Shown here piece by piece: positions 2,850 to 41,471 of a stretch of DNA of 64,000 nt; within the stretch, counting starts at the first letter, position 1, and each line of letters begins with the position of its first letter. The notes beneath the pieces were generated by a model. The model was not told where the DNA came from. It saw only the letters and a list, made by a program, of their open reading frames with translations, and did not search any database. This stretch comes from a virus. The stretch is from positions 6,592-70,591 of the IMG/VR virus record IMGVR_UViG_3300000059_000319. The stretch is one strand, 5' to 3'. The position numbers were made by a program, and so were the translations under genes.

Positions 2850-2876
2850 TTAAAGTAATTTAAAGTCAATAATATA

Positions 2877-2908
2877 TGGGTTGGGGATTTAATAACCCAA
2901 CCCTTTTT
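2877..2908 (+). terminator. Intrinsic terminator after the fibre gene (B counterpart ~39737-39765)
   Basis: GGGTTGGG...CCCAACCC + T run; B AGGGTTGG...CCAACCCT + T run. Confidence 0.7.
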
Positions 2909-2920
2909 AATTTAAAAATC

Positions 2921-3757: not shown

Positions 3758-3763
3758 TTAACT

Positions 3764-21433: not shown

Positions 21434-24247
21434 ATGAATGTAGAATTATATATCAACAATAGACAGGTAGAACTTGATGACCAATTTAATGTAAGTTTGG
21501 ATAAAGAATTTTATGATGCTGTGAACCTAACTACAAAAGAAGTATCATATAGTTATTCAATCAATATACCAACTACCCAACATAACAGGGAGATATTTGA
21601 TTATGTAGATATCGAAGAAACACCAAACAAGTTTGGTCAGGTGTATCAGACACAATTATATGTAAATTCAACTTTAATATTAGATGGTAATTATGTTAAT
21701 GAAGAAATTGATGGTGATTACTATACAGGTAATTTATATGTACCATCACAAAAAAATCTTAAAGATATATTTGGTGAACTCGATATGGTTAATATAATTT
21801 CACATGAATTATATATAAGTAGATGGAATGATATTAAAGAAATAAATTGGAATATGACCAATTCAAATACAGATAAACATATTTGTTTTCCTTTCATTTT
21901 ATATAATATACCTTACAATTCAGATGCAGTATCTGATAAATATACTCAATATGCAAGTTATGAAGATGGTGCTAATTGGGATTTAGATTACATGATACCT
22001 GCATTTAATATAACTTCTGTTATCAAAGATATATTCAAGACATTCAATATGAATGTGGATGGCAATATATTTAATGATGAGAAATTTAATAAGTTATATA
22101 TGACTTATAGTGGTGAATATGATAAATTTAAGAACGCTAAAATTGTACCATATAATTGTCAACTCAACATGAATTATATGGTAAGGAGAAATGAGAATAA
22201 TGATAGTACTATCATTCAAGTGAATGGTTTAGATACCCTTAGATTTTTAGCAGGTGATATATCTGTATCAGAGAATACAACTGTTACAGGTATTCAGGAT
22301 GATTATAATATGATTGTTAAGAGTACCACAAAAACAACAGGACAAATTAAAGTACCTAAAAGTGGTTGGTATAGAATTTCTGCTAGTGGTAATTACCAAA
22401 TGGATGGTTCCAGAAATAATATTTGGAATCAAAATGGTAGATGGTCAGTTTCAGGTGCATATTCTTCTTATGATAATTCAAGTGATGCAACTCATAGACC
22501 TGTTGAGATTCAAATAATAAGAGGGAAATCAGCAGCAGTTACAGCACCTAAACCTATTGGGGTATATGGTTTTGCACCATCACAACCCAATACAGATGCA
22601 GGTCAAGGTCAATCTTGGTCAGCTTTAAATGGTCGTGGTGTTGAAATACAATATCCACAAGGAGCAACAAGATTTCCAAAGAATAATAATACATTATTAA
22701 TTTCAGATGGTACAGCAGATACACCAACTGATGATTTTATATGTGGTGCACACTTTGGTCACTATGGTATCGAAAGAGGTGGGAAATCAGGAGAAAGTAA
22801 TAAACGTGGTGCATTCCTTTATAATAATCCTGACCCAACTAAGACTAATGCATCAATACAAGCTTCTTCATCATGGTATCAAATGCCTGATAACCCTGAA
22901 AATTATACATATGATTACAAACAAGCTAATGTGTTAGTAAGAAGGAGTGGTAAGGATGTTAGAGCATTCTCTAATTGTCAAGCTTATAATGAATTGAATA
23001 TATATACACCATCAGGTGATGACCAAGAAAATTGGATTAAAAGTTGGAATACATCAACCAACTATAATCAGATATCATATAATGGATTAAGTGATTCAAC
23101 TGCTACAACAACAGGTGTAAGGGATGGTAATTTTAAATGTGAAACAGTAATATGGTTAAATGCAGGTGAATATATTGATACATTCTTAATTTGCCCTCTT
23201 CATAATCATGGACGTTGGAGAGGTGGATTCAAAAGGACTTATGATAGACGTGGCGACACGATGCCACAGACATCAGTAAATGTATCTATCAAGATGGCAA
23301 TAATTAATAGTGACCCTGATTGGAATTATACCAAAGAAACCATACCATCATTTGCTGAATTATCTCAAAACAGAAAAAGTAATGTAAATAAAATGTTACC
23401 TGATATAAAAGTGAATGATTTCCTGAATGGGTTTGTTGATACATTCAATTTAAAATTAAGTAGATTAAATTCAAATTCATATTCAATTGATGTTACAAAT
23501 GAAAATGATACAATAGGTGAGATAATAGATATTGAACCATATACAGATATTTCAAGAAACAGATATACAAGAATAGATTTACCATCTGAATATCAATTTA
23601 TTTTTACAGTCGAGCACGAAGAAGAAGGATATACACAATTAGGTACTAATAATCTAAAACCTGAACAATATACAGGTGAAGGTGTATATGTAAACCCTGC
23701 TTCAACAAATGGTTCGATTATAAAGAAAGAAAGTATATTTAGTTACTGTTGGTATAAAGATATTTTATTTAAGGCTTATAATATTGAGGTACTGACACCA
23801 ACCCCAATCATAAGTAATAATGAAGTATGGGATGCAGGAACAACTTATGCAGAAGCATTTGAGAAAGGATTATATACAGATTATTCACCACGTTTATTTT
23901 ACCCTGATACAGACAATATTTGGAAATATACTATATACCCATTAAACAATCAGGATGCAACAGATATAAGATTGGTACCAGTAACTAATAATATATCACC
24001 TGATAATACATTAGAACTATCATATGATAAGTATATATCAAATTCTATCATCAATAAAATGTTTAATGTAAAATTATCAACAGGACATGAAGTTGAATGT
24101 AATCTATATTTACCTAACTATCTATTCAATAAAATAAATAATTCAAGTAGGATTAAAATGAATAATGATTTATATCAGGTCAAACAAATACAACAGTTTG
24201 ACCCATTAGAAGAAAATGAAACCAAACTAATATTGATTAAAGAATAA
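21434..24247 (+). CDS. Baseplate hub/tail tip protein
   Basis: MN.ELYI.N..VEL...Y...I.IPTT.HN.EIF N-terminus; homologue 60848..63652. Confidence 0.6.
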   Translation: MNVELYINNRQVELDDQFNVSLDKEFYDAVNLTTKEVSYSYSINIPTTQHNREIFDYVDIEETPNKFGQVYQTQLYVNSTLILDGNYVNEEIDGDYYTGNLYVPSQKNLKDIFGELDMVNIISHELYISRWNDIKEINWNMTNSNTDKHICFPFILYNIPYNSDAVSDKYTQYASYEDGANWDLDYMIPAFNITSVIKDIFKTFNMNVDGNIFNDEKFNKLYMTYSGEYDKFKNAKIVPYNCQLNMNYMVRRNENNDSTIIQVNGLDTLRFLAGDISVSENTTVTGIQDDYNMIVKSTTKTTGQIKVPKSGWYRISASGNYQMDGSRNNIWNQNGRWSVSGAYSSYDNSSDATHRPVEIQIIRGKSAAVTAPKPIGVYGFAPSQPNTDAGQGQSWSALNGRGVEIQYPQGATRFPKNNNTLLISDGTADTPTDDFICGAHFGHYGIERGGKSGESNKRGAFLYNNPDPTKTNASIQASSSWYQMPDNPENYTYDYKQANVLVRRSGKDVRAFSNCQAYNELNIYTPSGDDQENWIKSWNTSTNYNQISYNGLSDSTATTTGVRDGNFKCETVIWLNAGEYIDTFLICPLHNHGRWRGGFKRTYDRRGDTMPQTSVNVSIKMAIINSDPDWNYTKETIPSFAELSQNRKSNVNKMLPDIKVNDFLNGFVDTFNLKLSRLNSNSYSIDVTNENDTIGEIIDIEPYTDISRNRYTRIDLPSEYQFIFTVEHEEEGYTQLGTNNLKPEQYTGEGVYVNPASTNGSIIKKESIFSYCWYKDILFKAYNIEVLTPTPIISNNEVWDAGTTYAEAFEKGLYTDYSPRLFYPDTDNIWKYTIYPLNNQDATDIRLVPVTNNISPDNTLELSYDKYISNSIINKMFNVKLSTGHEVECNLYLPNYLFNKINNSSRIKMNNDLYQVKQIQQFDPLEENETKLILIKE

Positions 24248-24281
24248 AATCATATATTTGAGATATAACCATTAAAAAAAT

Positions 24282-24650
24282 ATGACTATGGCTTTTTATA
24301 CAGTAAATTTTAAATGTTCAGGTGAAGAATATAATGCAACTCTTAATTCAAGTTATCCACAAGAAAATATAGAGAATATAGATGACATAGAAGATATTGA
24401 AGATGTGGAAGATGTGGAAAATGATGAGAATGTAGAACCTGACTTATTAGTATTACAAGAAAATGTGGAAATTGCAATTATAAAGAAAAAGGAAAAACTT
24501 AATCTTATTGGAAAAGACCATTTTGTTTTAGAAGCATCTTATACTATGGATGAGATAAAATGGGATGCTGATAAAGAAGAACTTTGGGAAGTTATGGAAA
24601 GGGCAACATGGATTCCTATTGATATTACAGATTTGAATGTGAGAGTATAA
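24282..24650 (+). CDS. Acidic moron protein, A only
   Basis: Own TATATTTG at 24253-24260 and a terminator at ~24679-24710; absent between hub and tape measure in B. Confidence 0.6.
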   Translation: MTMAFYTVNFKCSGEEYNATLNSSYPQENIENIDDIEDIEDVEDVENDENVEPDLLVLQENVEIAIIKKKEKLNLIGKDHFVLEASYTMDEIKWDADKEELWEVMERATWIPIDITDLNVRV

Positions 24651-24745
24651 ACAATTTATTTAAACTATTTATATGATTGGGATGTGCTATTAAGTGCATC
24701 CCTTTTTTATTGACAAAAATCTTTATTAAAAAGATTTAAACAACT

Positions 24746-27700
24746 ATGTCTAACACAAACAAAAAAGTATATGTATTAGAAATTCAAGGTACAAAGGAAA
24801 GTTATGATGCAATAGTAAACATTAATGATGTGCTTGCATCTATGGATGAACATATTCAGTCAGTTAACAAACAAGAACAAGAACTAAACAAAACCAAAAA
24901 ACAATCAAAACAAGCTACTGATGAATTAACTAAGGTTCAGGAAAAATTGAATCAATATGATGCTGAATACCAACGAGAATTAGCAAAAGCAAAAGCTGCA
25001 TTACAAGAAAAAAATAAAGCCATCCAAGAAGAAGTAAAAGCTGAAAAATTAGCTGAAGGTTCATACTATGCTAAACAGGCTGCATTATCCAAACTTGGTA
25101 AAGAAATAAAATCATATGTAGCTAATACTGATGAAGAAAAACAACAACTTGAAGAAATGAAAGCACAGTATGCTTCATTAAATGATGAGTTGAAAGACTT
25201 CGATAAAACGATGGGAAACCATCAACGTGAGGTTGGTAATTATGCAATAGCTACACAAGGTCTTAAAGAAGAATTAAAAAATCTTGAAGATGAAATGACC
25301 TCACTTCTTGCAAATGGTATATCTACAACTGATGAAGGATTTCAACAATTAGCACATAGGGCAGGTGAAATTAAAGCAGCTATGGATGATGCTAAAAAAG
25401 AAATAGCAGCATTTTCAGATGGTTCTAAAAAAATTAATGATGTTGTAAATATTGCACAATCCCTTACAGCAGGGTTTGGTTTACTACAATCAGCAACAGC
25501 AGCATTTGGTATTGAGAATGAAGAAGTAAATGAAAGCATCCAAAAAATGATGGCTGCTATGACTGCATTACAATCACTTCAACAAATATCATCATCACTT
25601 ACAGATGAAACATCTGCATCCTATAAAATACTAAATAAAGCACTTCAACTATTTGGATTACAGAAAAAACAAAATACTGTTGCATTACAACAAGATACAA
25701 CAGCACAAACAGTTAATGCAACAGCAACAGGTGCAGCAACAGTAGCTACATCAGCTTCAACAACTGCACTTAAAGCTTTTAAAATAGCATTAGCAAGTAC
25801 AGGTGTTGGATTATTAGTTATAGCATTAGGTTATCTGATTGCAAACTTTGATGAGATAAAAAGTAAGGTAGTTGAGTTCTTACCATTCCTTGGTGAAATG
25901 GGTGAATCTTTTGAAAATCTTAAATCTGTGTTAGCAGGTGTTGGTGAAGCAGTCGTTAATTATCTTTTGACCCCAATTAAGACTGTTATAGCTGTTGTTA
26001 AAGGCTTTATGGAAGATGGTATCAAAGGTGCAGTTAAAGCAGGTACAAATGAATTTAAAAAGGGTATTAATGTTATTGATAACTATAAAAAAGGTTATGA
26101 TAAACAAGAAGCTAAAAACCAACAAAATAGAATTAAAGAAAATGCAAAATCACTTGATAAAGAACTAAATGACAAAATCAAAAACCTTGAAGCACAAAAA
26201 GGTAGAGATTTTAAATTTTCAAAAGATGGAATAGAAATATATAAACAATTCTATGCTAATAAGAAAAAATTATATGATAAGGATAGTGATGATTATAAGA
26301 ATGCTGTAAATGAGGAAATTGCATTTTTACGTGAAGTGACTGAACATGAGCAAGCTGAGTTAAAGAAAAGACAAGATGCTTGGAAAGCAGCAGCAGATAA
26401 AAGAAAAGCAGACTTAGAAAAACTGAAAGAAGATACCAAGAAAATTCTTGAAGATACTACCAAATTATATCTTGATAATGAACAAGTAAGATTGGATGCA
26501 CAAAGAAAAGGTATTGAAGATTTAAATGTATATAACCAAGAACAATTAAATTATAAACTTCAACAATTATCTGATATAAATAAAAAACAAGAAGAATTAA
26601 TTCAAAAGAATTTAGATAAAGAACTTGAATTGGTTAAAGAACAATATGATAAACTAATTAAAGAAGCTGAAAAACTTAACCAAGATACCACACAACTTAC
26701 AGATGATTACAATAAGAGAAAGCAGGGATTACAAGATAAAGCTGATGCAGAAAGGTTATCAAGGGAAAAAGAATTAAATAAACAAATTATTCAAGAACAG
26801 GATAAATTAAATAAATATCAAATTGACCAATCACAAAAAACAGTTGATGAAATCAATAAGACCTTAGATAATCAACTGAAAAACATCAAAACCATGAACA
26901 CCAAAACATCTAAAACTGGTGGGTTCTTTAATGTGATTGATGTTGAAAAAACCAAAAAAGATATTGAAGATGCTAAACAAGCATATGATGATTTGGCTAT
27001 ATCATTACTTGAGCAATCAAAGGTAGTTGCACAAGAATATGATAGGCAATTAGCATTAACAGCACAAACATATGGTTCAGATAGTAAAGAATACCAAGAC
27101 CTTTTAAATAAAAAAACATTAGCACTTGATAAATACTTGTCTGATTATAAAGTAGCTAACCAAGCTTCTATGGACTTACAAAAACAAGAAGCTGATTTGA
27201 TGAATGAATATTGGGATAGTGTAAGCCAACAAATTGGTGAAAGATTTAAATTATTAAATGAAGCTATTCTAACACCATTATATGATGCATTCACAGCTTT
27301 AAATGATATGCAACTTGAACAAGCTCAAAAGAATTTAGAAAAAGTACAGAAACTACATGATAAAGCAGTTCAGGAAGTAACAGATAGCCAAAGTAGAATT
27401 GAAGATTTAAATAATTCTATTACTGCTTCTAATGGTCTTAGACGTGACGAACTTGAAAAAACATTAGCTGATGAAGTTCTAATGTTGAAACAAAGGGAAG
27501 CAGAAGAGCAAAGATTAGCAATCGAAACACAAAAGGCAGAAGAAGAAGTTGCAGAAAAAGAACGTGCACAAAGAAAAATGGATGCAGGTAAAAAAATTAT
27601 TGAAGGTGCTATTAATACTGCAATAGCTGTAACTGCTGCTTTACCTAATCTTGTGTTAGCAGGTATTGTTGGTGCTATGGGTGCTGCTTCTACTGCAATA

Positions 27701-28111
27701 GCTGCTGCACAATATGCTAAACTTGAAGATGGTGGTTTACTATCTGGAAAATCTCATAAACAAGGTGGTATGAAGATACAAGGTTCAAATATTGAAGTTG
27801 AAGGTGGTGAATATGTAGTTAATAAAAGAAGTACACAACAATTTTTACCATTATTAGAAAGAATAAATGAATTTGGTAAAAATAAATCCTCATCTATTAC
27901 TTATAATAATATCTATCATAAATATGAAAATGGTGGTCAATTAGATTATGAATTAATAAATAGTAATTTAAATCAAAATAATCCATATAATAAAATGATG
28001 GATAAATTTAATGATGTTACCAATCAACCTATCTTTGTATCAGTAACTGACATTAACAGAGGACAAAACAGAGTAGCAAAAGTGAAAGATATGGCAGGTG
28101 CAACTTATTGA
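24746..28111 (+). CDS. Tape measure protein
   Basis: 1121 aa, long Ala/Gln/Lys helical coiled coil with hydrophobic Ala/Gly segments, C-terminal GG.H.QGG...EVEGGEYVVN motif. Confidence 0.85.
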   Translation: MSNTNKKVYVLEIQGTKESYDAIVNINDVLASMDEHIQSVNKQEQELNKTKKQSKQATDELTKVQEKLNQYDAEYQRELAKAKAALQEKNKAIQEEVKAEKLAEGSYYAKQAALSKLGKEIKSYVANTDEEKQQLEEMKAQYASLNDELKDFDKTMGNHQREVGNYAIATQGLKEELKNLEDEMTSLLANGISTTDEGFQQLAHRAGEIKAAMDDAKKEIAAFSDGSKKINDVVNIAQSLTAGFGLLQSATAAFGIENEEVNESIQKMMAAMTALQSLQQISSSLTDETSASYKILNKALQLFGLQKKQNTVALQQDTTAQTVNATATGAATVATSASTTALKAFKIALASTGVGLLVIALGYLIANFDEIKSKVVEFLPFLGEMGESFENLKSVLAGVGEAVVNYLLTPIKTVIAVVKGFMEDGIKGAVKAGTNEFKKGINVIDNYKKGYDKQEAKNQQNRIKENAKSLDKELNDKIKNLEAQKGRDFKFSKDGIEIYKQFYANKKKLYDKDSDDYKNAVNEEIAFLREVTEHEQAELKKRQDAWKAAADKRKADLEKLKEDTKKILEDTTKLYLDNEQVRLDAQRKGIEDLNVYNQEQLNYKLQQLSDINKKQEELIQKNLDKELELVKEQYDKLIKEAEKLNQDTTQLTDDYNKRKQGLQDKADAERLSREKELNKQIIQEQDKLNKYQIDQSQKTVDEINKTLDNQLKNIKTMNTKTSKTGGFFNVIDVEKTKKDIEDAKQAYDDLAISLLEQSKVVAQEYDRQLALTAQTYGSDSKEYQDLLNKKTLALDKYLSDYKVANQASMDLQKQEADLMNEYWDSVSQQIGERFKLLNEAILTPLYDAFTALNDMQLEQAQKNLEKVQKLHDKAVQEVTDSQSRIEDLNNSITASNGLRRDELEKTLADEVLMLKQREAEEQRLAIETQKAEEEVAEKERAQRKMDAGKKIIEGAINTAIAVTAALPNLVLAGIVGAMGAASTAIAAAQYAKLEDGGLLSGKSHKQGGMKIQGSNIEVEGGEYVVNKRSTQQFLPLLERINEFGKNKSSSITYNNIYHKYENGGQLDYELINSNLNQNNPYNKMMDKFNDVTNQPIFVSVTDINRGQNRVAKVKDMAGATY

Positions 28112-28483
28112 TAATTTTTGATACCTTTATTCATAATTTATAAATCTGAATATTATAAGAGCCTATTTAAATTTTATTTAATAATAGTCTGATATTCATT
28201 ATGTTAAAAATGATGGTCATTTTCAGGTAGTTATGATTGGTATTAAATTAGTGGAAAGATTATGTTTTTCCTCCTTCATTTTCCCACTCTCTATATGGCA
28301 AATATTTTAATATAATTCACAATAATAAATACTCATATTAAAAATTTGATTTATAATTGATTAGATTTAAAATATGAAATTAGAAAAAGTGACCAAAATA
28401 AATAAATTTAATGTAAGTGGTTGATTATCAATTTAAGGTTCGAGAACTATTCATTCTTGTATCTTTTTTCTGATAAGGTAAAT

Positions 28484-28513
28484 AAAAAGGGTCTGATAGT
28501 TCAAGACCCTTTT
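28484..28513. terminator. Bidirectional terminator downstream of the integrase
   Basis: AAAAGGGTCT-GATAGTTCA-AGACCCTTTT. Confidence 0.7.
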
Positions 28514-28598
28514 GTCTGTTAAATAAGCTACTTCTTATTCGATTTCTGACAGTTTAATATTATTTCTGACCAAATATATTATTGAATAAAATACTAAT

Positions 28599-29801
28599 TT
28601 ATAATGCGATTTTCTTATTTAAATTTTTCATATTTTCCTTTATAGTGCTATTCATTATTTTAGCATACCTTTGGGTCATTCTGCTGTTGGTGTGACCCAT
28701 CATAGCCTGTACAGAAGATAAATCAACATTATTATTTAGTGATACTGTTGCAAATGTGTGACGTGCTAAATGAAAGTGTAATTCTTTCTTAATCCCACAT
28801 ATATTACCAATTTCTTTTAAATATGCATTAACCTTTTGATTACTACACACAGGTAAACGAAAATGATAATCACTATTATTATATTTGGTTACAATATCTT
28901 CTGCTATTGGTAATAAGGGAATGCTTGACATAATATTAGTTTTCTCCCTTTTTTTCATTATCCACTTATCACCATTATCATCAAATACTATATGTTCATC
29001 AAATTTAAGTTCATTACAATCTATGTAAGCAAGACCTGTCAGACAGCTAAAAATGAATATATCCCTTACACAATTAAGTCTATGATTACCAAAATCTTTA
29101 TTATATATTTTCTTTATTTCATTCATAGTTAAATAACCTATATCTACTTTTTCAAGTGATAATCTAATATTTGCAAATGGGTTATTGGGTATTATACCAT
29201 CATTCCAAGCTATTAGACATATCTTCTTTAAATTCTTCATATAGTTAATTGATGTATTGTGACCAATTTTTAGTGTGGTTCTTATATAGTTGAACCAACC
29301 ATCAAGAAATGATTTATTGATTTCAACCATTTCTATATCAGTTCTATTATACTTTTCTTTTAGATAAGCTTTAAGATGGGTTAGGGTGGTCATGTGTTTT
29401 TGCCATGCAGCATATGATACACCATTTTTCTTATATAATGCTTCATATTCATCATTATGTTTTTGATATAGTTTTACAAGTGATGTATCACGTTCATCAA
29501 TTTTACCTTGAAACATATCTTTAATAGTATGAATATTTACAGGTATGTTTTTCATTAATAGCTTAGACTGACATTCATATAATTTCAATCTTGATAGGTT
29601 GATGAAGTTGTTGAACTCGATAGATAATTCATCATCACCAATTGCAATCTGTTGTTCTTGTAACCATTTATCAGGTTCTATTTTTCTTGGTAGTGTTAGG
29701 ATTGTTCTTTCTTTGTTAATAGTAATGGCTACTTCAAGTGGTGCAAAGCCTTGTTTGTTTACTTTGGTTTGTCTAACTGTAAAAAATAAATTGAAATTCA
29801 T
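28599..29801 (-). CDS. int: Tyrosine site-specific integrase (Bacteroidota arm-binding + SAM-like type)
   Basis: RDIFIFSCLTGLAYID, HLARHTFAT, MGH, TQRYAK catalytic motifs. Confidence 0.95.
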   Translation of the reverse strand: MNFNLFFTVRQTKVNKQGFAPLEVAITINKERTILTLPRKIEPDKWLQEQQIAIGDDELSIEFNNFINLSRLKLYECQSKLLMKNIPVNIHTIKDMFQGKIDERDTSLVKLYQKHNDEYEALYKKNGVSYAAWQKHMTTLTHLKAYLKEKYNRTDIEMVEINKSFLDGWFNYIRTTLKIGHNTSINYMKNLKKICLIAWNDGIIPNNPFANIRLSLEKVDIGYLTMNEIKKIYNKDFGNHRLNCVRDIFIFSCLTGLAYIDCNELKFDEHIVFDDNGDKWIMKKREKTNIMSSIPLLPIAEDIVTKYNNSDYHFRLPVCSNQKVNAYLKEIGNICGIKKELHFHLARHTFATVSLNNNVDLSSVQAMMGHTNSRMTQRYAKIMNSTIKENMKNLNKKIAL

Positions 29802-29971
29802 AACAATAATGATTTTAAATTATTAATTATGAGTTTCTTATATTCTATATTTTTATAAAAGCGTTATTTAAATTATTGATTGTTTTAATAATGGCAACTA
29901 CTTAAATAGTGGTTAAGTGACTGTACATCACAAAAGTTCACTATAAGTTGCAGGTCCATAATACCATTTCA

Positions 29972-29989
29972 GAATCCCTCTCTCTCCGC
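29972..29989 (+). other. att core: 3' end of a tRNA-Ser (GAATCCCTCTCTCTCCGC)
   Basis: Matches a T-loop/T-stem/acceptor 3' strand; no 5' tRNA half upstream; 170 bp from the integrase start; ATTGTTTTAATAATG repeated at 29879 and 30273. Confidence 0.75.
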
Positions 29990-30026
29990 TTAGAACGTTG
30001 TAAATGAAGACGTTACACAAATTATT

Positions 30027-30052
30027 AAGCAACCTTTGGGTTGCTTTTTTTT
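30027..30052 (+). terminator. Intrinsic terminator downstream of att core
   Basis: AAGCAACC-TTT-GGGTTGCTT followed by a T run. Confidence 0.75.
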
Positions 30053-30470
30053 ATGTGTTAGATTATAGAAATGTGTTGTTTATCAATTGATTAGTTAATA
30101 ATTTGTTATAACTAATTGATAATTCTCACCCCCTTAACCTCACCCTTCAACGGTTTTCATTTAAAGCTAATAAGTATTCCACACTTAATATAGCCGATAT
30201 AGTGCTATCTAATTGGTCTACACCTAATTGGCTTTAACGGACTTTTACCCCAAAATACCATTATAATAATCAATTGTTTTAATAATGCAACAATTAAAAC
30301 AATACAATTACATTAAAGAACTCATTTAAATATCTGTATCAAAGATAATTAAAGTTGCTCACTCCACCAAAAAACATGCTCACTAATGACAGAAAAGTGT
30401 TCACTTTCTTTGTTCACCCCCCTATTTTTTAAATTATTCCAATAAACAGATAATAAAAAGTTCTTATTCA

Positions 30471-30488
30471 AATCTTTATTATAAAAAG
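30471..30488 (+). promoter_or_regulatory. Late-promoter-like motif ahead of the head module
   Basis: AATCTTTATTATAAAAAG 30 nt before the protease ATG. Confidence 0.7.
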
Positions 30489-30500
30489 GTTATAAGAACT

Positions 30501-31052
30501 ATGAAGAAACTACCAATCTATGATGTTATTCTAACTGATGAAGATTTAGGAATGACAGCAGTAAGTTTTGTTGATGAACCTGCAATAGAAGAATTGTTTG
30601 TAGCCTTCAATAATGACCAAATAATGATGGCAAGTGATAAGCAAGAAGTAGTATCACCAATCTTAATACCTGACCAAGAAATTTACAGATGTGATAAAAC
30701 CACAGGAAAAGAATTTTTTATCAGATGGTCAGTAGAAACAATAGATGCAGTTGCTGTACAATACCTATTGAATCAGTTCAACAATAACACTACCATAATG
30801 CACCCACAATTTTATGATAAGAATTTGAAGTTAGAAGATTGTTTGGTTGATGATGTGTATTTAAAGCGTATGTGGATAATTGAGGATGCAAAGACAGATA
30901 TAATTAATACCAAGTATGGTTATAGTTTACCTGTTGGTACATTATGTACACACTACAAGATTCATAACAAACATCTATGGCAAAGGATAAAGAAGGGTGA
31001 ATTGAAAGGTTTATCAATCGAAGCATTTATGAGTATGGTTAAGGCTCAATAA
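30501..31052 (+). CDS. Prohead protease (XkdF-like)
   Basis: AVSFVDEPAIE, PILIPDQ.IYR, W..IK.GELKGLSIEAF motifs; first gene of the head module. Confidence 0.7.
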   Translation: MKKLPIYDVILTDEDLGMTAVSFVDEPAIEELFVAFNNDQIMMASDKQEVVSPILIPDQEIYRCDKTTGKEFFIRWSVETIDAVAVQYLLNQFNNNTTIMHPQFYDKNLKLEDCLVDDVYLKRMWIIEDAKTDIINTKYGYSLPVGTLCTHYKIHNKHLWQRIKKGELKGLSIEAFMSMVKAQ

Positions 31053-31079
31053 TAAAAATAAAAACACAAAAATAATACT

Positions 31080-31787
31080 ATGAACAAAAAGAAAATGAGT
31101 GTATTAAACAAGCTGATTACATTTTTAAATGATGTAACAGATGAAGCAGAAGCGATAATTGATGTTGCAGAAGTAGATACTACTGATAGTGGTGAAGTTA
31201 CATTAAGCTATACATTAGATAGTGGTGATGTAGTTACAGTTGATGCAGAAAAATTTGTACGTGATGCAAATATGGAATTATTAGAAGAAGGTAGTTATTT
31301 ACTTGAAGATGGTAATTTCTTAGTTGTAGATGCAGAAGGTAAGATTGTAGAAACAGTTGAAGAAGTTGCTGATGAATCAGCAGGTGAAGAAGCACCGATT
31401 GCAGAACGCAAAAATAAAAAAGTAGGACAAAAGAAAGTTACTAAAATTAAACAATCCAAGATTAGAAAAGGAATTAAACAAGAAGATGAAGTATCAGAAG
31501 ATGTAGTAGAAGATGAAAAAGTTACTATTACTATTGATGGTGTTGATTATGAAGTTGATAAAGCTGTTGCTGATTATATTAAGAAATTGGAAGGTGAAGT
31601 TGAAGTATCAGATGCAGAGATTGAACAATTTAAAACTAAGGTAAATAAATTTAAAAGTGAGGTATCACAATTAAAATCAAAATTACCAAGTGGAAAATTT
31701 GTATCAGAAGTAAAATCTGTAAATCAAAGTAAAGAAATGAGTGTTGAAGCATCTATTGCAAATGCACTTTCAAAAATGCGTAAATAA
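31080..31787 (+). CDS. Capsid scaffold-like protein
   Basis: Acidic, L..G.Y.LEDG..LVV..EG.I repeat-like motif, coiled-coil end; between protease and capsid. Confidence 0.6.
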   Translation: MNKKKMSVLNKLITFLNDVTDEAEAIIDVAEVDTTDSGEVTLSYTLDSGDVVTVDAEKFVRDANMELLEEGSYLLEDGNFLVVDAEGKIVETVEEVADESAGEEAPIAERKNKKVGQKKVTKIKQSKIRKGIKQEDEVSEDVVEDEKVTITIDGVDYEVDKAVADYIKKLEGEVEVSDAEIEQFKTKVNKFKSEVSQLKSKLPSGKFVSEVKSVNQSKEMSVEASIANALSKMRK

Positions 31788-31860
31788 TTTAATAAAAAAG
31801 GTTTACCAAAATCTTTATTATAAAGACACAAACAATAAAAAGAAAAACACAAAACAACAT

Positions 31861-32814
31861 ATGGCAAATTTAATTGATGCAAGTGCTATTGAATATACAT
31901 GTTTAGAGAATCGTGAATATTTCGTAAAAGCAATTAGAAAAGGTAACACATTAGCGAATAACTACATACGTGTATTACCAAATGTAACAAAAGAAACAAG
32001 AGTAAAGAAATTAGTATTGAATGGTGCAACTGTATCACAGGTTGATACACGTGATTGTGCATGGACACCAACCCAAAGAATTACAATAACTGACAAATTA
32101 ATGAAAGTAAATAACTTTAAAATTAATGAAGCTCAGTGTTTAGAAGACTTAGATAATTTGTATTCTGAAATGTTGTATTCAAGTGGTGCAAACAAAACTG
32201 AATTACCTGAAGGTTTAGAATCGGTTGTAATGCAACAAATTCAAGCATCATTAGGTAATGATATTGAAAAAATAATTTGGGGTGGTGCAGGTCAAGCAGT
32301 TGATGGTGTACAAGATGGTATTGTTGATAAATCATTAGCAGATGCATCTACTATTAAAATAACAGGTACTGCATTAAACACAGGTAATATTTTATCTGAA
32401 ATAGCAAAAGTATATGATGCTATACCAAATGAAGTAATTGGTGAAGGATGGTTTGACCCTGAACGTGCTGCTGTAAGAATCTTTGTAGATATGAACGCTT
32501 ACAGAATGTTAAGAACTGCATTAGGAACTACACCAACTGATGTACAAGTATTGTTACCAAATTGGACAATCGAAGGTGGTAAATTCTATTACTTAGGTAT
32601 TGAAATTGCTTTGGTTGGATTACCACAAAATACTATTGTTGCAGGTTCTTATGATAACTTAGTATTCTTAACTGACTTGTTATCTGATACTACTTCATTA
32701 CGTGCACAGGTTGGTAATGACTTTGAAGATGAAAATATTTGGAAAGTAAAAGGTAAATATCGTGCTAATGCTGATTATATCTTTGGTGATGAAATAGTTA
32801 TCTATTCAGTATAA
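31861..32814 (+). CDS. Major capsid protein (likely start MANLID)
   Basis: Size, position, I..DIEKIIWGG, promoter motif at 31810; track start 31741 overlaps the scaffold. Confidence 0.75.
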   Translation: MANLIDASAIEYTCLENREYFVKAIRKGNTLANNYIRVLPNVTKETRVKKLVLNGATVSQVDTRDCAWTPTQRITITDKLMKVNNFKINEAQCLEDLDNLYSEMLYSSGANKTELPEGLESVVMQQIQASLGNDIEKIIWGGAGQAVDGVQDGIVDKSLADASTIKITGTALNTGNILSEIAKVYDAIPNEVIGEGWFDPERAAVRIFVDMNAYRMLRTALGTTPTDVQVLLPNWTIEGGKFYYLGIEIALVGLPQNTIVAGSYDNLVFLTDLLSDTTSLRAQVGNDFEDENIWKVKGKYRANADYIFGDEIVIYSV

Positions 32815-32910
32815 TACCAATAACACAAACTTTAAAACTAATATGTGTGGTACATGAAATTGTGTACCACATATAAAAAATAATAACACAAAAAAAACAC
32901 AAAACTACAT

Positions 32911-33432
32911 ATGGCATTAAATTGTAAAATATCAAAACCTATTTTAGAAGATTGTGGTACTGTTGTAAATGGTATTCTAAATATGGCTATTGCGAATTGG
33001 TCAGATGATTATACCGCAACAGCATCAGGTACTGATTGTTATATAGATACTATCGACTTAGGTACTGAAAAATTCTATCAAGCAAACGTAGCAAAAGATA
33101 GTGCATCTGCAAATGCTGAATTATCAGCAGGTGCTAATAAGGATGCAAAAGCTATTAATCATATTGTTAATGGTACATTCAATTCTATCACTTGTGATAT
33201 GATTTCTGATTATAAAAATTATTTATTAGGAACTGTAATAATTGCATTTCAAAGGAGAGATAGAAGTGTATGGATTGCAGGATGGGATAATGGATTAACA
33301 GCAGAAACATTTACATATCAAACAGGTGCAGCAGAAGGTGATGAAGGTGGTATCACATTTACTTATAGTGGTATTCAACCTGATTTCTTATTACCTGTTA
33401 AAGATTGGGCAACCATCAAAGCATTAATGTAA
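32911..33432 (+). CDS. Major tail tube protein
   Basis: C....I..DC....GI...I.N N-terminus, W.AGWDNGL...TGA...D.GG.TFT.SG. Confidence 0.65.
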   Translation: MALNCKISKPILEDCGTVVNGILNMAIANWSDDYTATASGTDCYIDTIDLGTEKFYQANVAKDSASANAELSAGANKDAKAINHIVNGTFNSITCDMISDYKNYLLGTVIIAFQRRDRSVWIAGWDNGLTAETFTYQTGAAEGDEGGITFTYSGIQPDFLLPVKDWATIKALM

Positions 33433-33531: not shown

Positions 33532-34911
33532 ATGAAGTGTAAAATACATAAAGATATATTACCATCTAACCCTGATGGAAGTATAATAAGTGATTGTGGT
33601 AATTTAGATATTGCAACAGGTGGTATTCAAACACCTATTATATTATTTAATGCTGATGAAGTTCTTAATTTGGAATTTCTAAATGATTATAGATTTGATG
33701 AAAATTTAATTGTTGAAACTATTATAACAGATTCAACTTATTTTAAAATAGATGGTAGTTCAATTGAATATAAAGAAGTGTTTACTACCAATAATAAACA
33801 TCAACATACCCTATCATTATCACTAAATAACATTCACCCATCACTTGAAAGTACATTATTTGATGCTAAAAATGGTAGATATATAGTTTGTTTTCGTCCA
33901 AAAGGACAAGATAATTATAGAATGTTTGGTTGGAAAGAAGGTTCTGTTATGTCTATTGAATTAGGAATGAATGAGAGTGCAACAGGTTATACAGTAAAAT
34001 TTACATATGAATCTATATATCCATTATTCCAAGTACTATCAGATAATTTCAAATTAGAAGATAAATTTTTCACAGCCATATGGAATCCATTATATAACAT
34101 ATCCTATTGTGAATTAAATGGTGGTGATAGAACAGGTTTTGCAGTAGCACAATTTGTAGTGAAAGTAAATCAAGCAGGTCAAGCATTAGACAGGAATGAC
34201 CAATTATGTAGCGTTACAGGCTTACCACAGGTTGCATATAAATTGAATGGTACAAGTGGTACAGGTGGATATGAAATTATAGGTACATATTCTGAAAATG
34301 GTGTATTTGATGGTAAGCCTGTAAGGGTGTATGATGAAACAATTTGTCCACCTAATGCAACAGGTACTATAACAGTATCACCAACAGTAATCAATTTAAA
34401 TACAAATACTTCAAATGTACCATATACAGTTACATCAAGTAATGCGTGGAGCTTACGAGAAACACCATCATTAGTTAGTGTTAACCCTAATAGTGGTACA
34501 GGTAATAGTACAGGATTGATAGCAAGGAATAATACAGGTGGTACAAACATAGTATTATTTCAGAATAGAACAACACGTGAAATAGTACAGGTTACAGTTA
34601 ATATTTATTTGATTAAAGTAAATAATAATGTTGTATTGAATAATGGTACAACAGATTTTAATATACCTGTAACAGCAGAAGGTGGTTCAGCAGATTTTAC
34701 ATATGTAGTACCAAGTGGTTTAACGATAACTAAAAATGGTAATATTTTAAATTGTCATGTTACCACACCATCAACATCAGCACAAAATTATCAAATAGTA
34801 GTAACCCATATAAATGATAATACTGAAACACAAACAATTAATGTAAATATAAATGGTGTAAATGCTTCACCAAATTGGGTTGAAATAAGTAGATATTGTA
34901 AATTGGTTTAA
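33532..34911 (+). CDS. Tail-tube paralogue with Ig-like extensions and a C-terminal PNWxxxSxxC strand
   Basis: N-terminal domain resembles 32911..33432; ends SPNWVEISRYCKLV. Confidence 0.55.
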   Translation: MKCKIHKDILPSNPDGSIISDCGNLDIATGGIQTPIILFNADEVLNLEFLNDYRFDENLIVETIITDSTYFKIDGSSIEYKEVFTTNNKHQHTLSLSLNNIHPSLESTLFDAKNGRYIVCFRPKGQDNYRMFGWKEGSVMSIELGMNESATGYTVKFTYESIYPLFQVLSDNFKLEDKFFTAIWNPLYNISYCELNGGDRTGFAVAQFVVKVNQAGQALDRNDQLCSVTGLPQVAYKLNGTSGTGGYEIIGTYSENGVFDGKPVRVYDETICPPNATGTITVSPTVINLNTNTSNVPYTVTSSNAWSLRETPSLVSVNPNSGTGNSTGLIARNNTGGTNIVLFQNRTTREIVQVTVNIYLIKVNNNVVLNNGTTDFNIPVTAEGGSADFTYVVPSGLTITKNGNILNCHVTTPSTSAQNYQIVVTHINDNTETQTINVNINGVNASPNWVEISRYCKLV

Positions 34912-34915
34912 TAGT

Positions 34916-35467
34916 ATGAGATATTGTAATAATTTAGAACATAATATAAAGAATGAATGTAACACACATATATCAGGTATCAGAAGATTGTATTTGATAA
35001 ATGCAAAAGACTATGTTGGTGCTGATGATAGTACCATATACTTAACTATTGGTAGTAGTGCATTTGAAATTGACGCTGCTAAAAATACTGCATCATTAGT
35101 ACAGACTGCAATAACTAATAATAGAAAACAAACACATATTCAATCAGTATTAACTTTTTCGGTAAACAAAGAAGCTTCTAACCTATTGAAACAACAGATG
35201 GATTTAACATTAGGTAAATTCAAAGTATTGGTTGAATATTGGGATAGGTCTTGGTTATTTGCAGATAGTAGTGATTTCTTTTTTGAACAAACAAATGCTG
35301 TAAGAAATACAGGTATTCAAGAAAAAGATTTTGGTGGTTTTACATTCACCTATACATTAAGAAGTTATGATTATGGTATTGATTATGAATCTATGCCTGA
35401 TATTGTATTAGATGGAAGTACAGACCCTAATTGGGAATTAATAAGTGAAGAATGTGAGGTGATATAA
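34916..35467 (+). CDS. Tail-tube paralogue with a C-terminal PNWxxxSxxC strand
   Basis: C...I.NEC...ISGI..LYLIN; TG....DFGGFTFTY; ends DPNWELISEECEVI. Confidence 0.55.
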   Translation: MRYCNNLEHNIKNECNTHISGIRRLYLINAKDYVGADDSTIYLTIGSSAFEIDAAKNTASLVQTAITNNRKQTHIQSVLTFSVNKEASNLLKQQMDLTLGKFKVLVEYWDRSWLFADSSDFFFEQTNAVRNTGIQEKDFGGFTFTYTLRSYDYGIDYESMPDIVLDGSTDPNWELISEECEVI

Positions 35468-36456
35468 TGGCAGAAAGAAATGGATATTTAATAATTGAAG
35501 AAATGGATATAAACCCCAATTCACCAACATATAATCAAACAAGACAAAGAGAATTATATGATGTTGATTCTTGCCCTTTACCTAATGCTGATTATCAATT
35601 AGTTGATGAATTTTGTGAAACAGATTCAGATACAGGTGCAAGAACAGGGTGGAAAATATTAGTATATCAAGATATGAATATTAATAGTCCTACATATTTA
35701 GAAACTTATCAAGACCGAATACAGGATGAAACAACTTGTGATGTACAAACTGTTGACCCTGCATGGGAAGTTATTTCAGAAGCTTGTGAAATAATTACAT
35801 ATGGTTCAGGTAAAACAGGTAATAGTGGTTATTATATTATTACCTACCAAGATATGAATAGTTTATCACCATCATATAATGAAACATATGAAGATAAAAT
35901 ATATAATACTACTGATTGCCCTGCACCCGATATAACACCTAATTGGTTTACCCTATCTTCTACTTGTAAGACTATTAATATTGATGGTGTGATATATGGT
36001 GATGGTACAGCTAACATAGTACAGATTGACAGAAATGAATACTCACCAACTTATAATCAATATCGAGATGTGAATGAACCATCTGATACTTGTTCACAAA
36101 CAATTGGTAGAACAACCATAGGTGGTTATGATAATGCACCTGATGAATTTTTATTTGATACTGATGATTGGGTTGCAAGATTAGAATTGAAAAAAGTAGT
36201 TGGTGGTGTGGTTGATAGTTTGATTTATGTTATCAATTTGAATAAAGATAATATTGGAAAATTTGTATTTAATAATTTTAAAGATGTTCAATACAGAATC
36301 AATAGATGTAGTTATTGGGAATCACCAACATCAGATGAAGTAAGTTTAGATAATATCTATTTAAATCATAGTGAATACCCTGTTGATATTGATGATACAA
36401 GTATTGATGGTAAATGGTTGTTAAATAACACTTTGAATATATTACCAAACAAATAA
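35467..36456 (+). CDS. Two-Cys DxNxxSPTY repeat protein (half + three full repeats) with a C-terminal domain
   Basis: Repeats visible in translation; TAATG coupling to the upstream gene. Confidence 0.75.
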   Translation: MAERNGYLIIEEMDINPNSPTYNQTRQRELYDVDSCPLPNADYQLVDEFCETDSDTGARTGWKILVYQDMNINSPTYLETYQDRIQDETTCDVQTVDPAWEVISEACEIITYGSGKTGNSGYYIITYQDMNSLSPSYNETYEDKIYNTTDCPAPDITPNWFTLSSTCKTINIDGVIYGDGTANIVQIDRNEYSPTYNQYRDVNEPSDTCSQTIGRTTIGGYDNAPDEFLFDTDDWVARLELKKVVGGVVDSLIYVINLNKDNIGKFVFNNFKDVQYRINRCSYWESPTSDEVSLDNIYLNHSEYPVDIDDTSIDGKWLLNNTLNILPNK

Positions 36457-36476
36457 TTAAGATAAAATATTTATAA

Positions 36477-37412
36477 ATGGCAGATAATACAGGATATAGA
36501 TTAGATAGATATAAAGATATAAACCCATATTCACCGACATATGGAAATATAAAAACTGAAAAGGTATATGATACTTCTATGTGTCCTATACCTGTAAGTG
36601 GTGAAATAGTATATAAGATTGTAGTACCAAGTAATAATTATACTGATGTAGCATTTAGTAAGACATACAGTTTTTCAGGTGGTTTGTATAATGGTTGTTC
36701 AGTTCTTATAGATTGGGGTGATGGTTCTAATGAATTAATACCAATCACACAAACAGATGTATCACATACATATACATTAGCAGGTGAATATATTATAAAT
36801 GTTTCAGTTGCTGAAATTGGTAGTGGTGGTATAATTAGTTCTTTCACTATGAGTAAATTAACAAGTGAAATAATTAAATATAAACTAACATTCAAAACAT
36901 ATTTTAATACTATAATTAAACCTACAAATACATTAATAACTTTAATAGAACCAAGTGATTATAATATAATTAGAACAAATGAAGATAATAATGAAAATAT
37001 AGGAAGTTTTGGTTATATGTCTAATTTGGTTGAAGTACAAGATGGTGATTGGAGTAAGATATTTAATAATAAATGTATTGGTTATGGTAGTATGTTTGCT
37101 TTTGATAGCAAATTACAGACTATACCAACCCATATTATGAGTGGTTTAAAACCACGTGCATTAGGTTCTATGTTTTATGAGAATCAAAATTTGGTATTGA
37201 ATATAAATGATTTCTTTGATAATGTAGATTTAAGTAATGTAGATAGTGTAAATAGTATGTTTTATAACTGTAAGAAGATTACAGGTTCAGCATTACCCAT
37301 TATCAGTAGATTAAATCACTTATCAAGCTATAATGATTACTATAAATGTTTTTATAACTGTACATCATTAAGTGATTATAATTCAATACCTGCAAATTGG
37401 AAGGCACAATAA
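36477..37412 (+). CDS. Half repeat + PKD-like + BspA-like LRR adhesin
   Basis: MADNTGY...DINPYSPTY...CP, IDWGDG, MFYNC..., SDYNSIPANWK. Confidence 0.75.
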   Translation: MADNTGYRLDRYKDINPYSPTYGNIKTEKVYDTSMCPIPVSGEIVYKIVVPSNNYTDVAFSKTYSFSGGLYNGCSVLIDWGDGSNELIPITQTDVSHTYTLAGEYIINVSVAEIGSGGIISSFTMSKLTSEIIKYKLTFKTYFNTIIKPTNTLITLIEPSDYNIIRTNEDNNENIGSFGYMSNLVEVQDGDWSKIFNNKCIGYGSMFAFDSKLQTIPTHIMSGLKPRALGSMFYENQNLVLNINDFFDNVDLSNVDSVNSMFYNCKKITGSALPIISRLNHLSSYNDYYKCFYNCTSLSDYNSIPANWKAQ

Positions 37413-37431
37413 ATTTTAATTAAAAAATACT

Positions 37432-37773
37432 ATGGCAAATACAGGATATAAAATAAAGAAATACTTAGATACCAATCCATATTCACCGAGTTATGGAACT
37501 ACCAAAACTGAACGTATATATGCACCTGATGAATGTGTTGATGATGCACCTGCATGGTCAGAGATTAGCAGGGTGTGTAATAAGATAAATTATCAACCAA
37601 GTGGTGTAGCAGGTAATGATGGTAAAGCAACAGTTACATATGAAGATATTAATATTGATTCTCCATCATTTGGAACTACCAAAGTAGAAATAGTTAGTGA
37701 TTTATCTTCATGTCCATTACCAAATAAAACGGCTGATTGGGAATTACAAAATAGTGAATGTGAAGTTGAATAA
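37432..37773 (+). CDS. Small two-Cys repeat linker protein
   Basis: Homologue of 564..905. Confidence 0.75.
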   Translation: MANTGYKIKKYLDTNPYSPSYGTTKTERIYAPDECVDDAPAWSEISRVCNKINYQPSGVAGNDGKATVTYEDINIDSPSFGTTKVEIVSDLSSCPLPNKTADWELQNSECEVE

Positions 37774-39780: not shown

Positions 39781-40614
39781 ATGAGTAGAAGACATTATAA
39801 TTTATATAACAATATGATAGAAGGTAATTTAAATATAGATTTAGAAGTATCTGTAAGTGCAGATAATGTAGGTAAATTATTACATCTTGGTAGGATGAAT
39901 AGAAGAAATATGACAGGTACAAATATTGCCTATTGTCGTATTCTTGTAGATTGGGGTGATGGTACTGTTGAAACAGTAGATGTAACACCATTATACACTA
40001 ATACAGGCTTACAACCTACTTCATTTACCCACACATATACAGCAGAAGGTACTTATTTAGTATCATTATCACAAATATCTGATAAATCATTAGTTAGACC
40101 TTATTGGTTTACATTTACAAAACCATCAGGTACATATGTAGAATTACCAATAGTAAAAGTTAACAGGTTTAATTTTAATGGTATAAGTATAAAATCTTTA
40201 TTTGGTGGTTCAGTTAATCCATTATCAGTTACCCACATTTTAAATATTAATATACCTGATGTAAATGATTTAAATTCAGCATTTTCAGGTTCATCTAAAT
40301 TTCAAGAATTGGATATTAAAGGTTTATCAAAAATTACTGTACCTATATTAGATTTAAAATCTGCTTTTAGAATACATAAAAACTATGTTTTTGATTTGAA
40401 TCAACTATCTGATAATTGGGATATATCACAAGTTACAGATGTTACATTAGCATTTAGCGGTAATCAGAGTATGACAGGTACAGGACAAACATTTATTGAT
40501 AGATTACCATCAGGTGTAGCAGGTAATGAATATGTATCAGCATATTTATTTGAAAATTGTAAATCATTAAGTGATTATGATTCAATTGATAACATTTACA
40601 AAGACAATATTTAA
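39781..40614 (+). CDS. MSRRHY PKD-like/LRR-like putative receptor-binding protein
   Basis: Homologue of 2921..3757. Confidence 0.7.
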   Translation: MSRRHYNLYNNMIEGNLNIDLEVSVSADNVGKLLHLGRMNRRNMTGTNIAYCRILVDWGDGTVETVDVTPLYTNTGLQPTSFTHTYTAEGTYLVSLSQISDKSLVRPYWFTFTKPSGTYVELPIVKVNRFNFNGISIKSLFGGSVNPLSVTHILNINIPDVNDLNSAFSGSSKFQELDIKGLSKITVPILDLKSAFRIHKNYVFDLNQLSDNWDISQVTDVTLAFSGNQSMTGTGQTFIDRLPSGVAGNEYVSAYLFENCKSLSDYDSIDNIYKDNI

Positions 40615-40616
40615 TT

Positions 40617-41471
40617 ATGGCAAGAAGACATTATAACATAGAAAATAAAGTACCTCAATATTGGGGTGCATGGGAATTTGTAATTGATTTAACATCAGCT
40701 ACATCATTAACTGTTGGTGTATTTTCAACTACATCAAATTATTCTACTTCATATAATCGAAAACCAACATTAATTATAGATTGGGGTGATGGCACAACCG
40801 AAACAAAAGAACTTGCTGCTACATCTACAACCCATCAACATACATTTCCATCTAAATCAGTATTTACAGTACATATAGATGAAGTATTTATACCAAATGA
40901 AGAACAAGCAAGGGTAACAAAATTGTTATTTAATGCACAATCATATGACTGTTTGACCCATATAAATATTTATAAATCAGATGAAATAACCAATATTGAC
41001 CAAATATGTAATAATAGAAAAAAATTGATAGGTTTTGGTAATGGTTTTAAATTTGAAGTACCTAATTGTTTAACTACATCAGGTACGTTTTATGGTTGTA
41101 CAGGTCTTACATCATTACCGAGTGGAATATTTGATATTATGACTAAAATAACATCATTCTATTATATATGTCCTAACTGTACAGGGTTAACATCATTACC
41201 ATCTAAATTATTTAGATATAACACTAAATGTACCAATTACAGTCAGATATTTGCATATTGTTCTGCACTAACAGCTAATTTAAATGATGTATTTGATGGA
41301 GCAACTTTAAATAAAGTAATTAATACTTCATATGGATTTAGAAATTGTAAGATTACAGGTGAAGCATTACCAATAATTGCTAAACTAACATCAGCTACAA
41401 CCATATCAGGTACATTTAATAACTGTACCACATTAACAGATTACACATCAATACCTGCAACATGGAAATAA
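40617..41471 (+). CDS. MARRHY PKD-like + BspA LRR putative receptor-binding protein
   Basis: Homologue of 3764..4639. Confidence 0.75.
   Translation: MARRHYNIENKVPQYWGAWEFVIDLTSATSLTVGVFSTTSNYSTSYNRKPTLIIDWGDGTTETKELAATSTTHQHTFPSKSVFTVHIDEVFIPNEEQARVTKLLFNAQSYDCLTHINIYKSDEITNIDQICNNRKKLIGFGNGFKFEVPNCLTTSGTFYGCTGLTSLPSGIFDIMTKITSFYYICPNCTGLTSLPSKLFRYNTKCTNYSQIFAYCSALTANLNDVFDGATLNKVINTSYGFRNCKITGEALPIIAKLTSATTISGTFNNCTTLTDYTSIPATWK

Follow-up and report, generated by a model that had tools for sequence, protein, structure and literature searches.

A repeat split between neighbouring genes suggests docking of phage adhesins by a unit rebuilt across two chains

In the chaperone–usher pili (Fim, Pap), an immunoglobulin (Ig)-like sandwich lacks its central G strand, an N-terminal extension serves as the donor, and assembly depends on a periplasmic chaperone together with an usher. 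SpyTag/SpyCatcher is a man-made split of the CnaB2 adhesin domain that is closed by a Lys–Asp isopeptide bond. Among phages, the N-terminal domain of T7 gp17, the T4 gp10-like modules of branched tailspikes and the Dit/BppU docking of lactococcal siphophages are complete, usually trimeric anchors that dock by their surfaces. Here, we analysed a 64,000-nucleotide (nt) stretch of viral DNA (hereafter, the window), corresponding to bases 6592–70591 of the 75.4-kb IMG/VR provirus record IMGVR_UViG_3300000059_000319. In this window, a repeat of ~55 amino acids (aa) is divided between neighbouring proteins: B459 (the hub) and B183 end with its first part, the adhesin or side-fibre proteins B329 and B311 start with the remainder, and the small protein B113 does both. 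We propose that this arrangement probably represents a new system, referred to as split-repeat docking, in which adhesins would be attached to the tail by one repeat rebuilt across two chains.

The split repeat is similar to the chaperone–usher pili in that an incomplete beta domain would be finished by a strand of its neighbour, so that ordered chains can be built from modules, including adaptor and tip subunits. However, the predicted repeat is a small sheet of three strands, the strand that would be donated lies C-terminally and at the sheet edge, and each half carries a cysteine. In addition, no PapD- or usher-type matches were found among the neighbouring genes, which are phage head and tail genes. 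The predicted fold, strand position and donor end all appear to differ, placing the locus outside the chaperone–usher systems. With SpyTag/SpyCatcher and the intramolecular isopeptide domains, it shares, as far as general knowledge goes, a strand from a separate chain that docks on a small beta domain with a covalent lock possible, although here the split is natural, the lock would be a disulfide, and the fold and sequence are different. The arrangement also resembles the anchor modules of phage receptor-binding proteins, as a shared N-terminal module precedes varied receptor-binding C-termini, is encoded just past the hub gene and would make the adhesins exchangeable. In contrast to those modules, the anchor here is half a repeat, and the other half ends the hub protein; moreover, no family in Pfam, PDB or the annotated PHROGs matched the anchor sequence. 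The hub, in which a tube-like N-terminal domain is followed by BACON/Ig-like domains, recalls the decorated distal and major tail proteins, and we know of none reported to end in a half repeat continued by the next gene product. The disulfide-stapled sheets of the midkine/pleiotrophin and thrombospondin type-1 repeat (TSR) type are comparable in size and layout (~55 aa, three antiparallel strands, conserved Cys). Foldseek returned two pleiotrophin/midkine C-terminal domain entries with probabilities of 0.99 and 0.90, with TM-scores of 0.14–0.26 and no sequence similarity, and we regard this weak likeness as a resemblance only. To our knowledge, a split-repeat docking principle has not been described for phages.

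Each repeat unit consists of a first element, P (PxWxxxSxxC), a loop, and a second element, S (GYxIxxYxDxNPxSPTY, ~14 aa and CP). An orphan P, always finished by the Cys and three further residues, forms the C-terminus of B459 (SPNWVEISRYCKLV), B183 (DPNWELISEECEVI) and B113 (TADWELQNSECEVE). An orphan S is found 3–5 residues into the N-terminus of B329, B311 and B113, which start with MAERNGY, MADNTGY and MANTGY, respectively, followed by DxNPxSPxY and the Cys. The elements of the window were mapped using a hidden Markov model (HMM) of the repeat built from internal units of other proteins only, and those of the relatives were also parsed by HMM. The terminal P elements were recovered with independent domain E-values (i-E) between 2.5e-5 and 9e-4 (Table 1), and the N-terminal S elements with values of 1e-15 to 1e-18 over model positions 22–57 only. 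Furthermore, the C-terminal pattern W-x6-C-x3-stop occurs in 3 of the 107 open reading frames (ORFs) of the window, exactly B459, B183 and B113, compared with 0.03 expected by residue shuffling. These results confirmed the ORFs and the split termini as given in the original prediction, which had been made from the sequence of the window alone. The whole units that it had placed in B329 and B113 were mapped by the HMM as three and one, respectively. It had also claimed that the protein with S, whole unit and P is kept in a second copy of the genes (copy A, described below), and the copy-A orthologue A113 indeed shows this layout.

The structural unit of the repeat was evaluated using models, covariation, array borders and cysteine bookkeeping. 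In the AlphaFold2 (AF2) model of B329, built from 36 sequences, the repeats reached predicted local distance difference test (pLDDT) values >90, and the first unit, which lacks P, was lower at 65–89. The strand pattern P (43–52), a 6-residue loop, b2 (59–69), a loop and b3 (80–86) recurred along the chain; P was connected to the next b2 via a turn of 3–6 residues and to the preceding b3 via a linker of 12–14 residues. Mutual information among 314 distinct cis units revealed two antiparallel ladders, with paired columns summing to 38 between P and b2 and to 76 between b2 and b3, indicating a sheet order of P-b2-b3 with P at the edge, and the Trp(P)–Arg(b3) column pair also covaries in these units. 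Internal arrays begin with P, 41 of them strictly, while most of the remaining 32 still take in the P-Cys, and the arrays after the hub follow the pattern P-S-...-S, past which the chain goes on into other domains. Moreover, the Cys is retained in 87 array-final S elements, for which only the upstream P-Cys is available as a partner, and an S-Cys without an upstream P-Cys is found in 112 N-terminal elements versus 5 internal ones (two of the three shown have a mis-called start). Cys36 of B311 has no cis partner nearby. Because the AF2 strand pattern, the covariation ladders, the array starts and the cysteine bookkeeping agree, P+S is supported as the structural unit, with the split termini as the halves of one such unit. 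The modelled repeat is a three-stranded antiparallel beta unit comprising P, a tight hairpin to b2 (GYxIxxYxD), the NPxSPTY loop, b3 and the second Cys (CP). The phase of the unit together with the cysteine bookkeeping indicates that each split half bears one conserved Cys that is otherwise without a partner. This finding agrees with the phase (P strand, loop and S) and the one conserved Cys per half that had been predicted, and the cut, expected within a loop of the repeat, falls in the P/b2 hairpin loop.

The cut is conserved across the hub family. Of its 37 homologues with 33–74% identity, 35 are complete; every complete one closes with P and a further 3–8 residues and retains the P-Cys, and 28 stop exactly three residues past it. 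In nine homologues of B183, P171, W173, C180 and E181 are invariant. In addition, 13 cluster representatives contain the full hub (HMM positions 1–456 of 457, E-values of 1e-64 to 1e-164) that continues as a single chain, directly past P, into xTGYxIxxYxDxNPxSPTY, and these proteins carry further units and a C-terminal domain past the first S. B459 aligns end to end with one such protein, P0096 (32% identity, E-value 7e-67), and its last residues match the first P of the covalent array. These single-chain proteins can be read as Rosetta-stone fusions of hub and adhesin, in which the two ends form one unit. Another protein, P0007 (locus L017), is a B183 homologue with an extra S+P, and L017 is without the 113-aa gene, which fits the idea, put forward in the original prediction, that the small protein acts as an extender. 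B113 is 67% identical to its copy-A orthologue, and further homologues are present in two other loci (L087 and L094).

The genes that carry the two halves are neighbours. In the first 20 junctions, a P-ending gene is followed by an S-starting gene at −1 to +20 nt, and the loose ends at the junction total 7–8 residues in 18 of the 20, which is within the range of the cis loop; among the S-starting proteins, 104 of 109 have 3–5 residues ahead of the Gly. With metagenome loci included, 41 of the 53 P-ending genes with downstream sequence immediately precede an S-starting gene. The other 12 are mostly followed by a B183-like paralogue, itself then followed by an S-starting gene, and the rest are caller artefacts or a mis-called start. 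A prospective look-up from three distant S-starting subfamilies showed that the upstream neighbour ends in P in 3/3. Plug-ending and socket-starting genes therefore co-occur in relatives, as the original prediction had it. The numbers of the two gene types are balanced in copies A and B (3 and 3 in each) and in L017 (2 and 2). The spacers of 35 unique junctions likewise range from −1 to +20 nt, and in the 18 in-frame junctions the two ORFs are parted by one stop and 1–6 codons. These in-frame junctions look like simple fissions via a stop codon in the loop, which suggests repeated fission or fusion through single mutations in the hairpin loop.

On this basis, we propose the following model of docking. 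The hub proteins (B459 and B183) would offer a lone C-terminal P as a plug, and the adhesin or side-fibre proteins (B329 and B311) would start with a lone b2–b3 hairpin as the socket. The P strand of the hub may pair, by edge-strand augmentation, with the b2 strand that is exposed at the edge of the first unit in the adhesin, by which the whole repeat would be rebuilt across two chains and the adhesin mounted on the tail. The two otherwise partnerless cysteines would then be positioned to form a disulfide between the chains after the virion has left the cell. B113, with its S, whole unit and P, would serve as an adaptor or extender that takes one plug and presents another. On this model, the proteins would be located on the virion and the plugs would be matched with sockets; the charge-matched pairs B459 with B311 and B183 with B113 were considered and set aside, since they are not conserved in the A copy. 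Overall, split-repeat docking appears to be the probable explanation of the split termini. A more far-reaching version is tentative: the system might represent a natural, encoded tag-and-catcher for virion assembly, with strand augmentation, a disulfide lock after release, and two-half adaptors such as the 113-aa protein building branched or polymeric appendages.

Trans pairing was also assessed using a complex prediction for one pair, B183 with B329 residues 1–100. The score was 0.33, compared with 0.00 for the best control, with 100% contact agreement among the runs and a partner pLDDT of at least 77. Of 80 solved complexes, 58 reach the mark of this procedure, as do 2 of 110 mismatched pairs; passes at values up to 0.60 comprise just 7 of those 80 solved complexes and both passing mismatches. 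The result lends weak support to trans pairing between B183 and B329. In the AF2 monomer of B183, the tail (151–183) is disordered at a pLDDT of ~30, which fits a tail awaiting its partner and proves nothing. The multimer check that had been suggested for plugs and sockets was thus weakly positive for this one pair, and cis-like covariation across chains was negative. Of the original analogy with donor-strand complementation, completion by a strand of the partner was kept, while the insertion of a missing central strand was not, because covariation puts P at the edge of the sheet, making edge-strand augmentation more likely than insertion of the pilus type.

Several points weigh against docking by trans pairing. 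Unless a pair was probable beforehand, a pass at 0.33 would be wrong more often than it is right. The fit of native plug/socket pairs to the cis covariation was no better than that of permuted pairs, either in 24 pairs (p = 0.25) or in 35 unique pairs (p = 0.79; p = 0.99 for the ladder columns only); this test is small and confounded by terminal elements that form their own subtypes, and it was treated as uninformative-to-negative. Even without P, the first unit of B329 took the form of a hairpin in the model, with pLDDT values up to 89, indicating that it may be stable alone. Assembly in the cytoplasm would occur under reducing conditions. Moreover, plug and socket counts are unequal in several loci, with one plug gene and two socket genes, which would mean competition for hub sites. 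Finally, the tube-like fold of the plug carriers relies on a model with a pLDDT of 58.6 and on non-significant Foldseek rows, as described below.

Much of this evidence would fit an alternative in which the halves are leftovers of fission or module shuffling that cuts an exposed hairpin loop, and in which the orphan P and S never meet. The N-terminal S would then be a self-sufficient adaptor docking at another site of the tail, such as the tube ring or the BACON/Ig domains, and the terminal P would pack on its own protein or be a spacer. The hairpin modelled for the first unit of B329, the lack of cis-like covariation in native pairs, the unequal counts at some loci and the weak complex score are all consistent with such leftovers. 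However, P is kept as a 14-residue orphan end in 35/35 complete hubs, with identities as low as 33%, together with its Cys and a near-fixed 3-residue tail, and the S Cys is likewise kept in the 112 N-terminal units without an upstream cis partner. Fused homologues show that both ends make one unit, and in the B183 monomer model the tail is disordered and does not pack against the domain that carries it. We consider leftover halves an unlikely explanation.

The repeat could also be read in another phase, with S and the next P as the domain. Adhesins would then start with complete domains, the 113-aa protein would be two domains, and the terminal P of the hub would be a short conserved tail that serves something else, such as contacts in the ring or recognition by a chaperone. 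The 113-aa protein indeed splits exactly into two such units, with Cys pairs 35/49 and 94/110, and ends that lie three residues past the P-Cys and 3–5 residues ahead of GY are readable as domain borders. This reading is improbable in view of the short hairpin loop from P to the next b2 versus the 12–14-residue linker to the preceding b3, the P:b2 covariation ladder within P+S, and internal arrays that start with P or, after the hub, run P-S-...-S. The 87 array-final S elements would retain a Cys without a downstream partner, and adhesins of the B311 type carry an S without any next P. A further possibility is that readthrough or frameshifting at the hub/adhesin junction makes the repeat whole in cis in part of the product, as the genes abut (−1 to +20 nt) and at roughly half of the junctions both ORFs share a frame, with one stop and 1–6 codons between. 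Among the 35 unique junctions, however, the frame offset is 0 in 18, +2 in 12 and +1 in 5, with varying spacer lengths, and such mixed offsets indicate that neither readthrough nor frameshifting can be the general joining route. In the B183/B329-type junction, the genes are in frame with a 3-nt gap in copy A, whereas in copy B they overlap by −1 in another frame, the stop of B183 overlapping the start of B329 (TAATG). In addition, each adhesin starts at an ATG of its own with a conserved MAxTGY, and recoding is therefore highly improbable. Split-repeat docking between separate chains remains the preferred reading, at the strength given above.

The nature of the plug carriers was examined by sequence and structure comparison. 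B183 matches the 173-aa tube-like protein with 24% identity (BLASTP, E-value 4e-8). Its model is poor (pLDDT 58.6) and contains strands and one helix; a Foldseek search with this model returned top rows nearly all from chains of the tail tube, terminator or baseplate; probabilities went up to 0.98, but every E-value was >1e-3 and every TM was <0.5. The Atlas feature neighbour of B183 is 'Phage tail protein', and those of B459 are major tail proteins decorated by a He_PIG, Big_2 or BACON domain. These comparisons make it plausible that the plug carriers are paralogues of the tail tube, as had been predicted, on weaker evidence than that for the split itself. In B459, a degenerate internal P+S unit was observed at residues ~180–275 (window 34069..34356; WNPLYNISYC..GDRTGFAVAQFVVKVNQAGQAL..C) in a BLAST sub-alignment with P0096, and the same comparison showed a second S-like element ending in CPPN.

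Among the socket carriers, B311 matches phrog_9915 and has weak DUF285 (17.2 bits against a cut-off of 25) and Pfam PKD matches, both below cut-off; S-starting relatives match leucine-rich repeat (LRR) families clearly (P0107, LRR_5, 5.7e-56). B329 is only 38% identical to its A copy over the whole protein, compared with 67–74% for B459, B183 and B113, and its C-terminal domain differs strongly between the copies (window 36094..36453 versus 5860..6205 of L009, the beginning of the record). This domain is a candidate receptor-binding end, and its divergence is as expected under diversifying pressure; it resembles FN3/Ig sandwiches at a non-significant Z of ~4. In addition, paired LRR proteins past the fibre gene (window 39781..41471 and 2876..4639) start with MSRRHYN or MARRHYN in copy B. 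These starts may represent a second shared N-terminal tag on adhesin-like proteins, possibly another docking peptide.

The distribution of the repeat was determined by a profile search, which retrieved 252 cluster representatives with E ≤ 1e-3, among which 50 reached E ≤ 1e-30. Among the 150 representatives listed, most are 500–1300 aa long with S starting at residue 2, and many have BspA-type LRR ends; the socket stands at the start of over 100 large LRR-type adhesins. When YxDxNPxSPTY was searched as a degenerate DNA pattern, 59 viral loci were obtained, of which 11 were true matches, and a search for related loci found none from B183 alone and four weak ones only from the 113-aa protein. 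Neither the repeat nor the hub matched a Pfam or NCBIfam family, and the best match of the repeat to PDB sequences had an E-value of 1.2. A tblastn search of B329, B459 and a distant S module against 50,697 phage records returned nothing, leaving the repeat and the hub with no match in cultured phages. Structure searches with the elongated model of B329 in Foldseek and VIA-align yielded nothing meaningful for the repeat, including no Ig-like match in the repeat region. The repeat family defined here, present in at least 252 protein clusters, thus appears to be widespread and without a database entry. Giant proteins of 1400–2500 aa (P0016, P0043, P0048, P0088, P0128, P0147 and P0157) were also observed, with signal-peptide-like N-termini and 4–18 tandem repeats near the C-terminus; P0016 and P0043, the only two scanned, match Pfam DUF5977. 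The presence of repeat arrays in such cell-surface-type bacterial proteins indicates that the repeat is not confined to phages.

Self-comparison of the record showed two tandem sister prophages (copies A and B) with ~70% nt identity. The structural genes of copy B begin within the window (Table 1), and those of copy A, at the beginning of the record, were fetched as L009; the termini of five copy-A genes match those of the five copy-B genes. Genes for terminase, portal, a tape-measure-like protein and integrase lie elsewhere, and the 173-aa tube-like gene lies between the capsid and hub genes in all relatives.

Table 1. Positions of the split-repeat proteins, their repeat elements and neighbouring structural genes in the window
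Feature	Copy	Position	Strand	Remarks
A113	A	564..905	+	copy-A orthologue of B113; S / unit / P layout as in B113
XkdF-type protease	B	start 30501		
Scaffold-like protein	B	start 31080		
Capsid protein	B	start 31741		distant likeness to Nonlabens phage P12024
173-aa tube-like protein	B	32911..33432	+	presumed tube subunit; without terminal P
B459 (hub, 459 aa)	B	33532..34911	+	tube-like N-terminal domain, degenerate internal P+S, two BACON/Ig-like domains, orphan terminal P
Orphan P (plug) of B459	B	34870..34908	+	PNWVEISRYC + KLV; HMM i-E 5.5e-5, model positions 2–13
B183 (183 aa)	B	34916..35467	+	tube-like paralogue (plausible); flexible C-terminal tail leading to orphan P
Orphan P (plug) of B183	B	35423..35464	+	HMM i-E 2.5e-5, model positions 1–14
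B329 (329 aa)	B	35467..36456	+	orphan N-terminal S, three whole P+S units, variable C-terminal domain
Orphan S (socket) of B329	B	35476..35580	+	b2–b3 hairpin and Cys36; HMM i-E 4.6e-15, model positions 23–57 only
Three complete cis P+S units of B329	B	35584..36093	+	HMM i-E 1e-15 to 8e-26, model positions 1–57
B311	B	36477..37412	+	adhesin-like; orphan N-terminal S, PKD-like region, DUF285/BspA-type LRR region
Orphan S of B311	B	36483..36590	+	HMM i-E 2.4e-16
B113 (putative extender, 113 aa)	B	37432..37773	+	orphan S, one whole unit, orphan P
Orphan S of B113	B	37435..37536	+	HMM
Whole unit of B113	B	37549..37719	+	HMM
Orphan P of B113	B	37732..37770	+	HMM i-E 9e-4
633-aa fibre	B	start 37815		LRR proteins come next

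The gene order is unusual and is kept in non-integrated relatives (L081–L084 and L128): a ~990-aa protein, a tape-measure-like protein, protease, capsid, tube, hub and adhesins (window 21434..33432). In the window, the integrase gene (28599..29801, minus strand) separates the tape-measure-like gene from the protease gene. NUMOD- or HNH-type homing-endonuclease genes were found on the opposite strand amid the structural genes of relatives, namely L081 (5842–6744), L082 (17039–17797) and L083 (582–1106, 5645–6394 and 9386–9994). Two hub-bearing contigs (L093 and L094) from animal gut samples are filed as 'MAG: Clostridia bacterium', a binning that may be wrong, whereas the sole cultured relatives of the capsid are phages of Nonlabens (Flavobacteriia).

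If the two halves pair, the split repeat would provide a compact and portable rule for mounting and exchanging host-recognition proteins across an uncultured phage clade. Hub/adhesin pairs would be predictable from sequence alone and, on the tag-and-catcher version, adhesins would be freely swappable by retaining an N-terminal socket of ~40 residues. Split-repeat strand complementation, known from bacterial pili, would then join the modes of virion assembly. Such a small natural pair of peptide and domain, possibly locking by a disulfide, would also be available for protein engineering.

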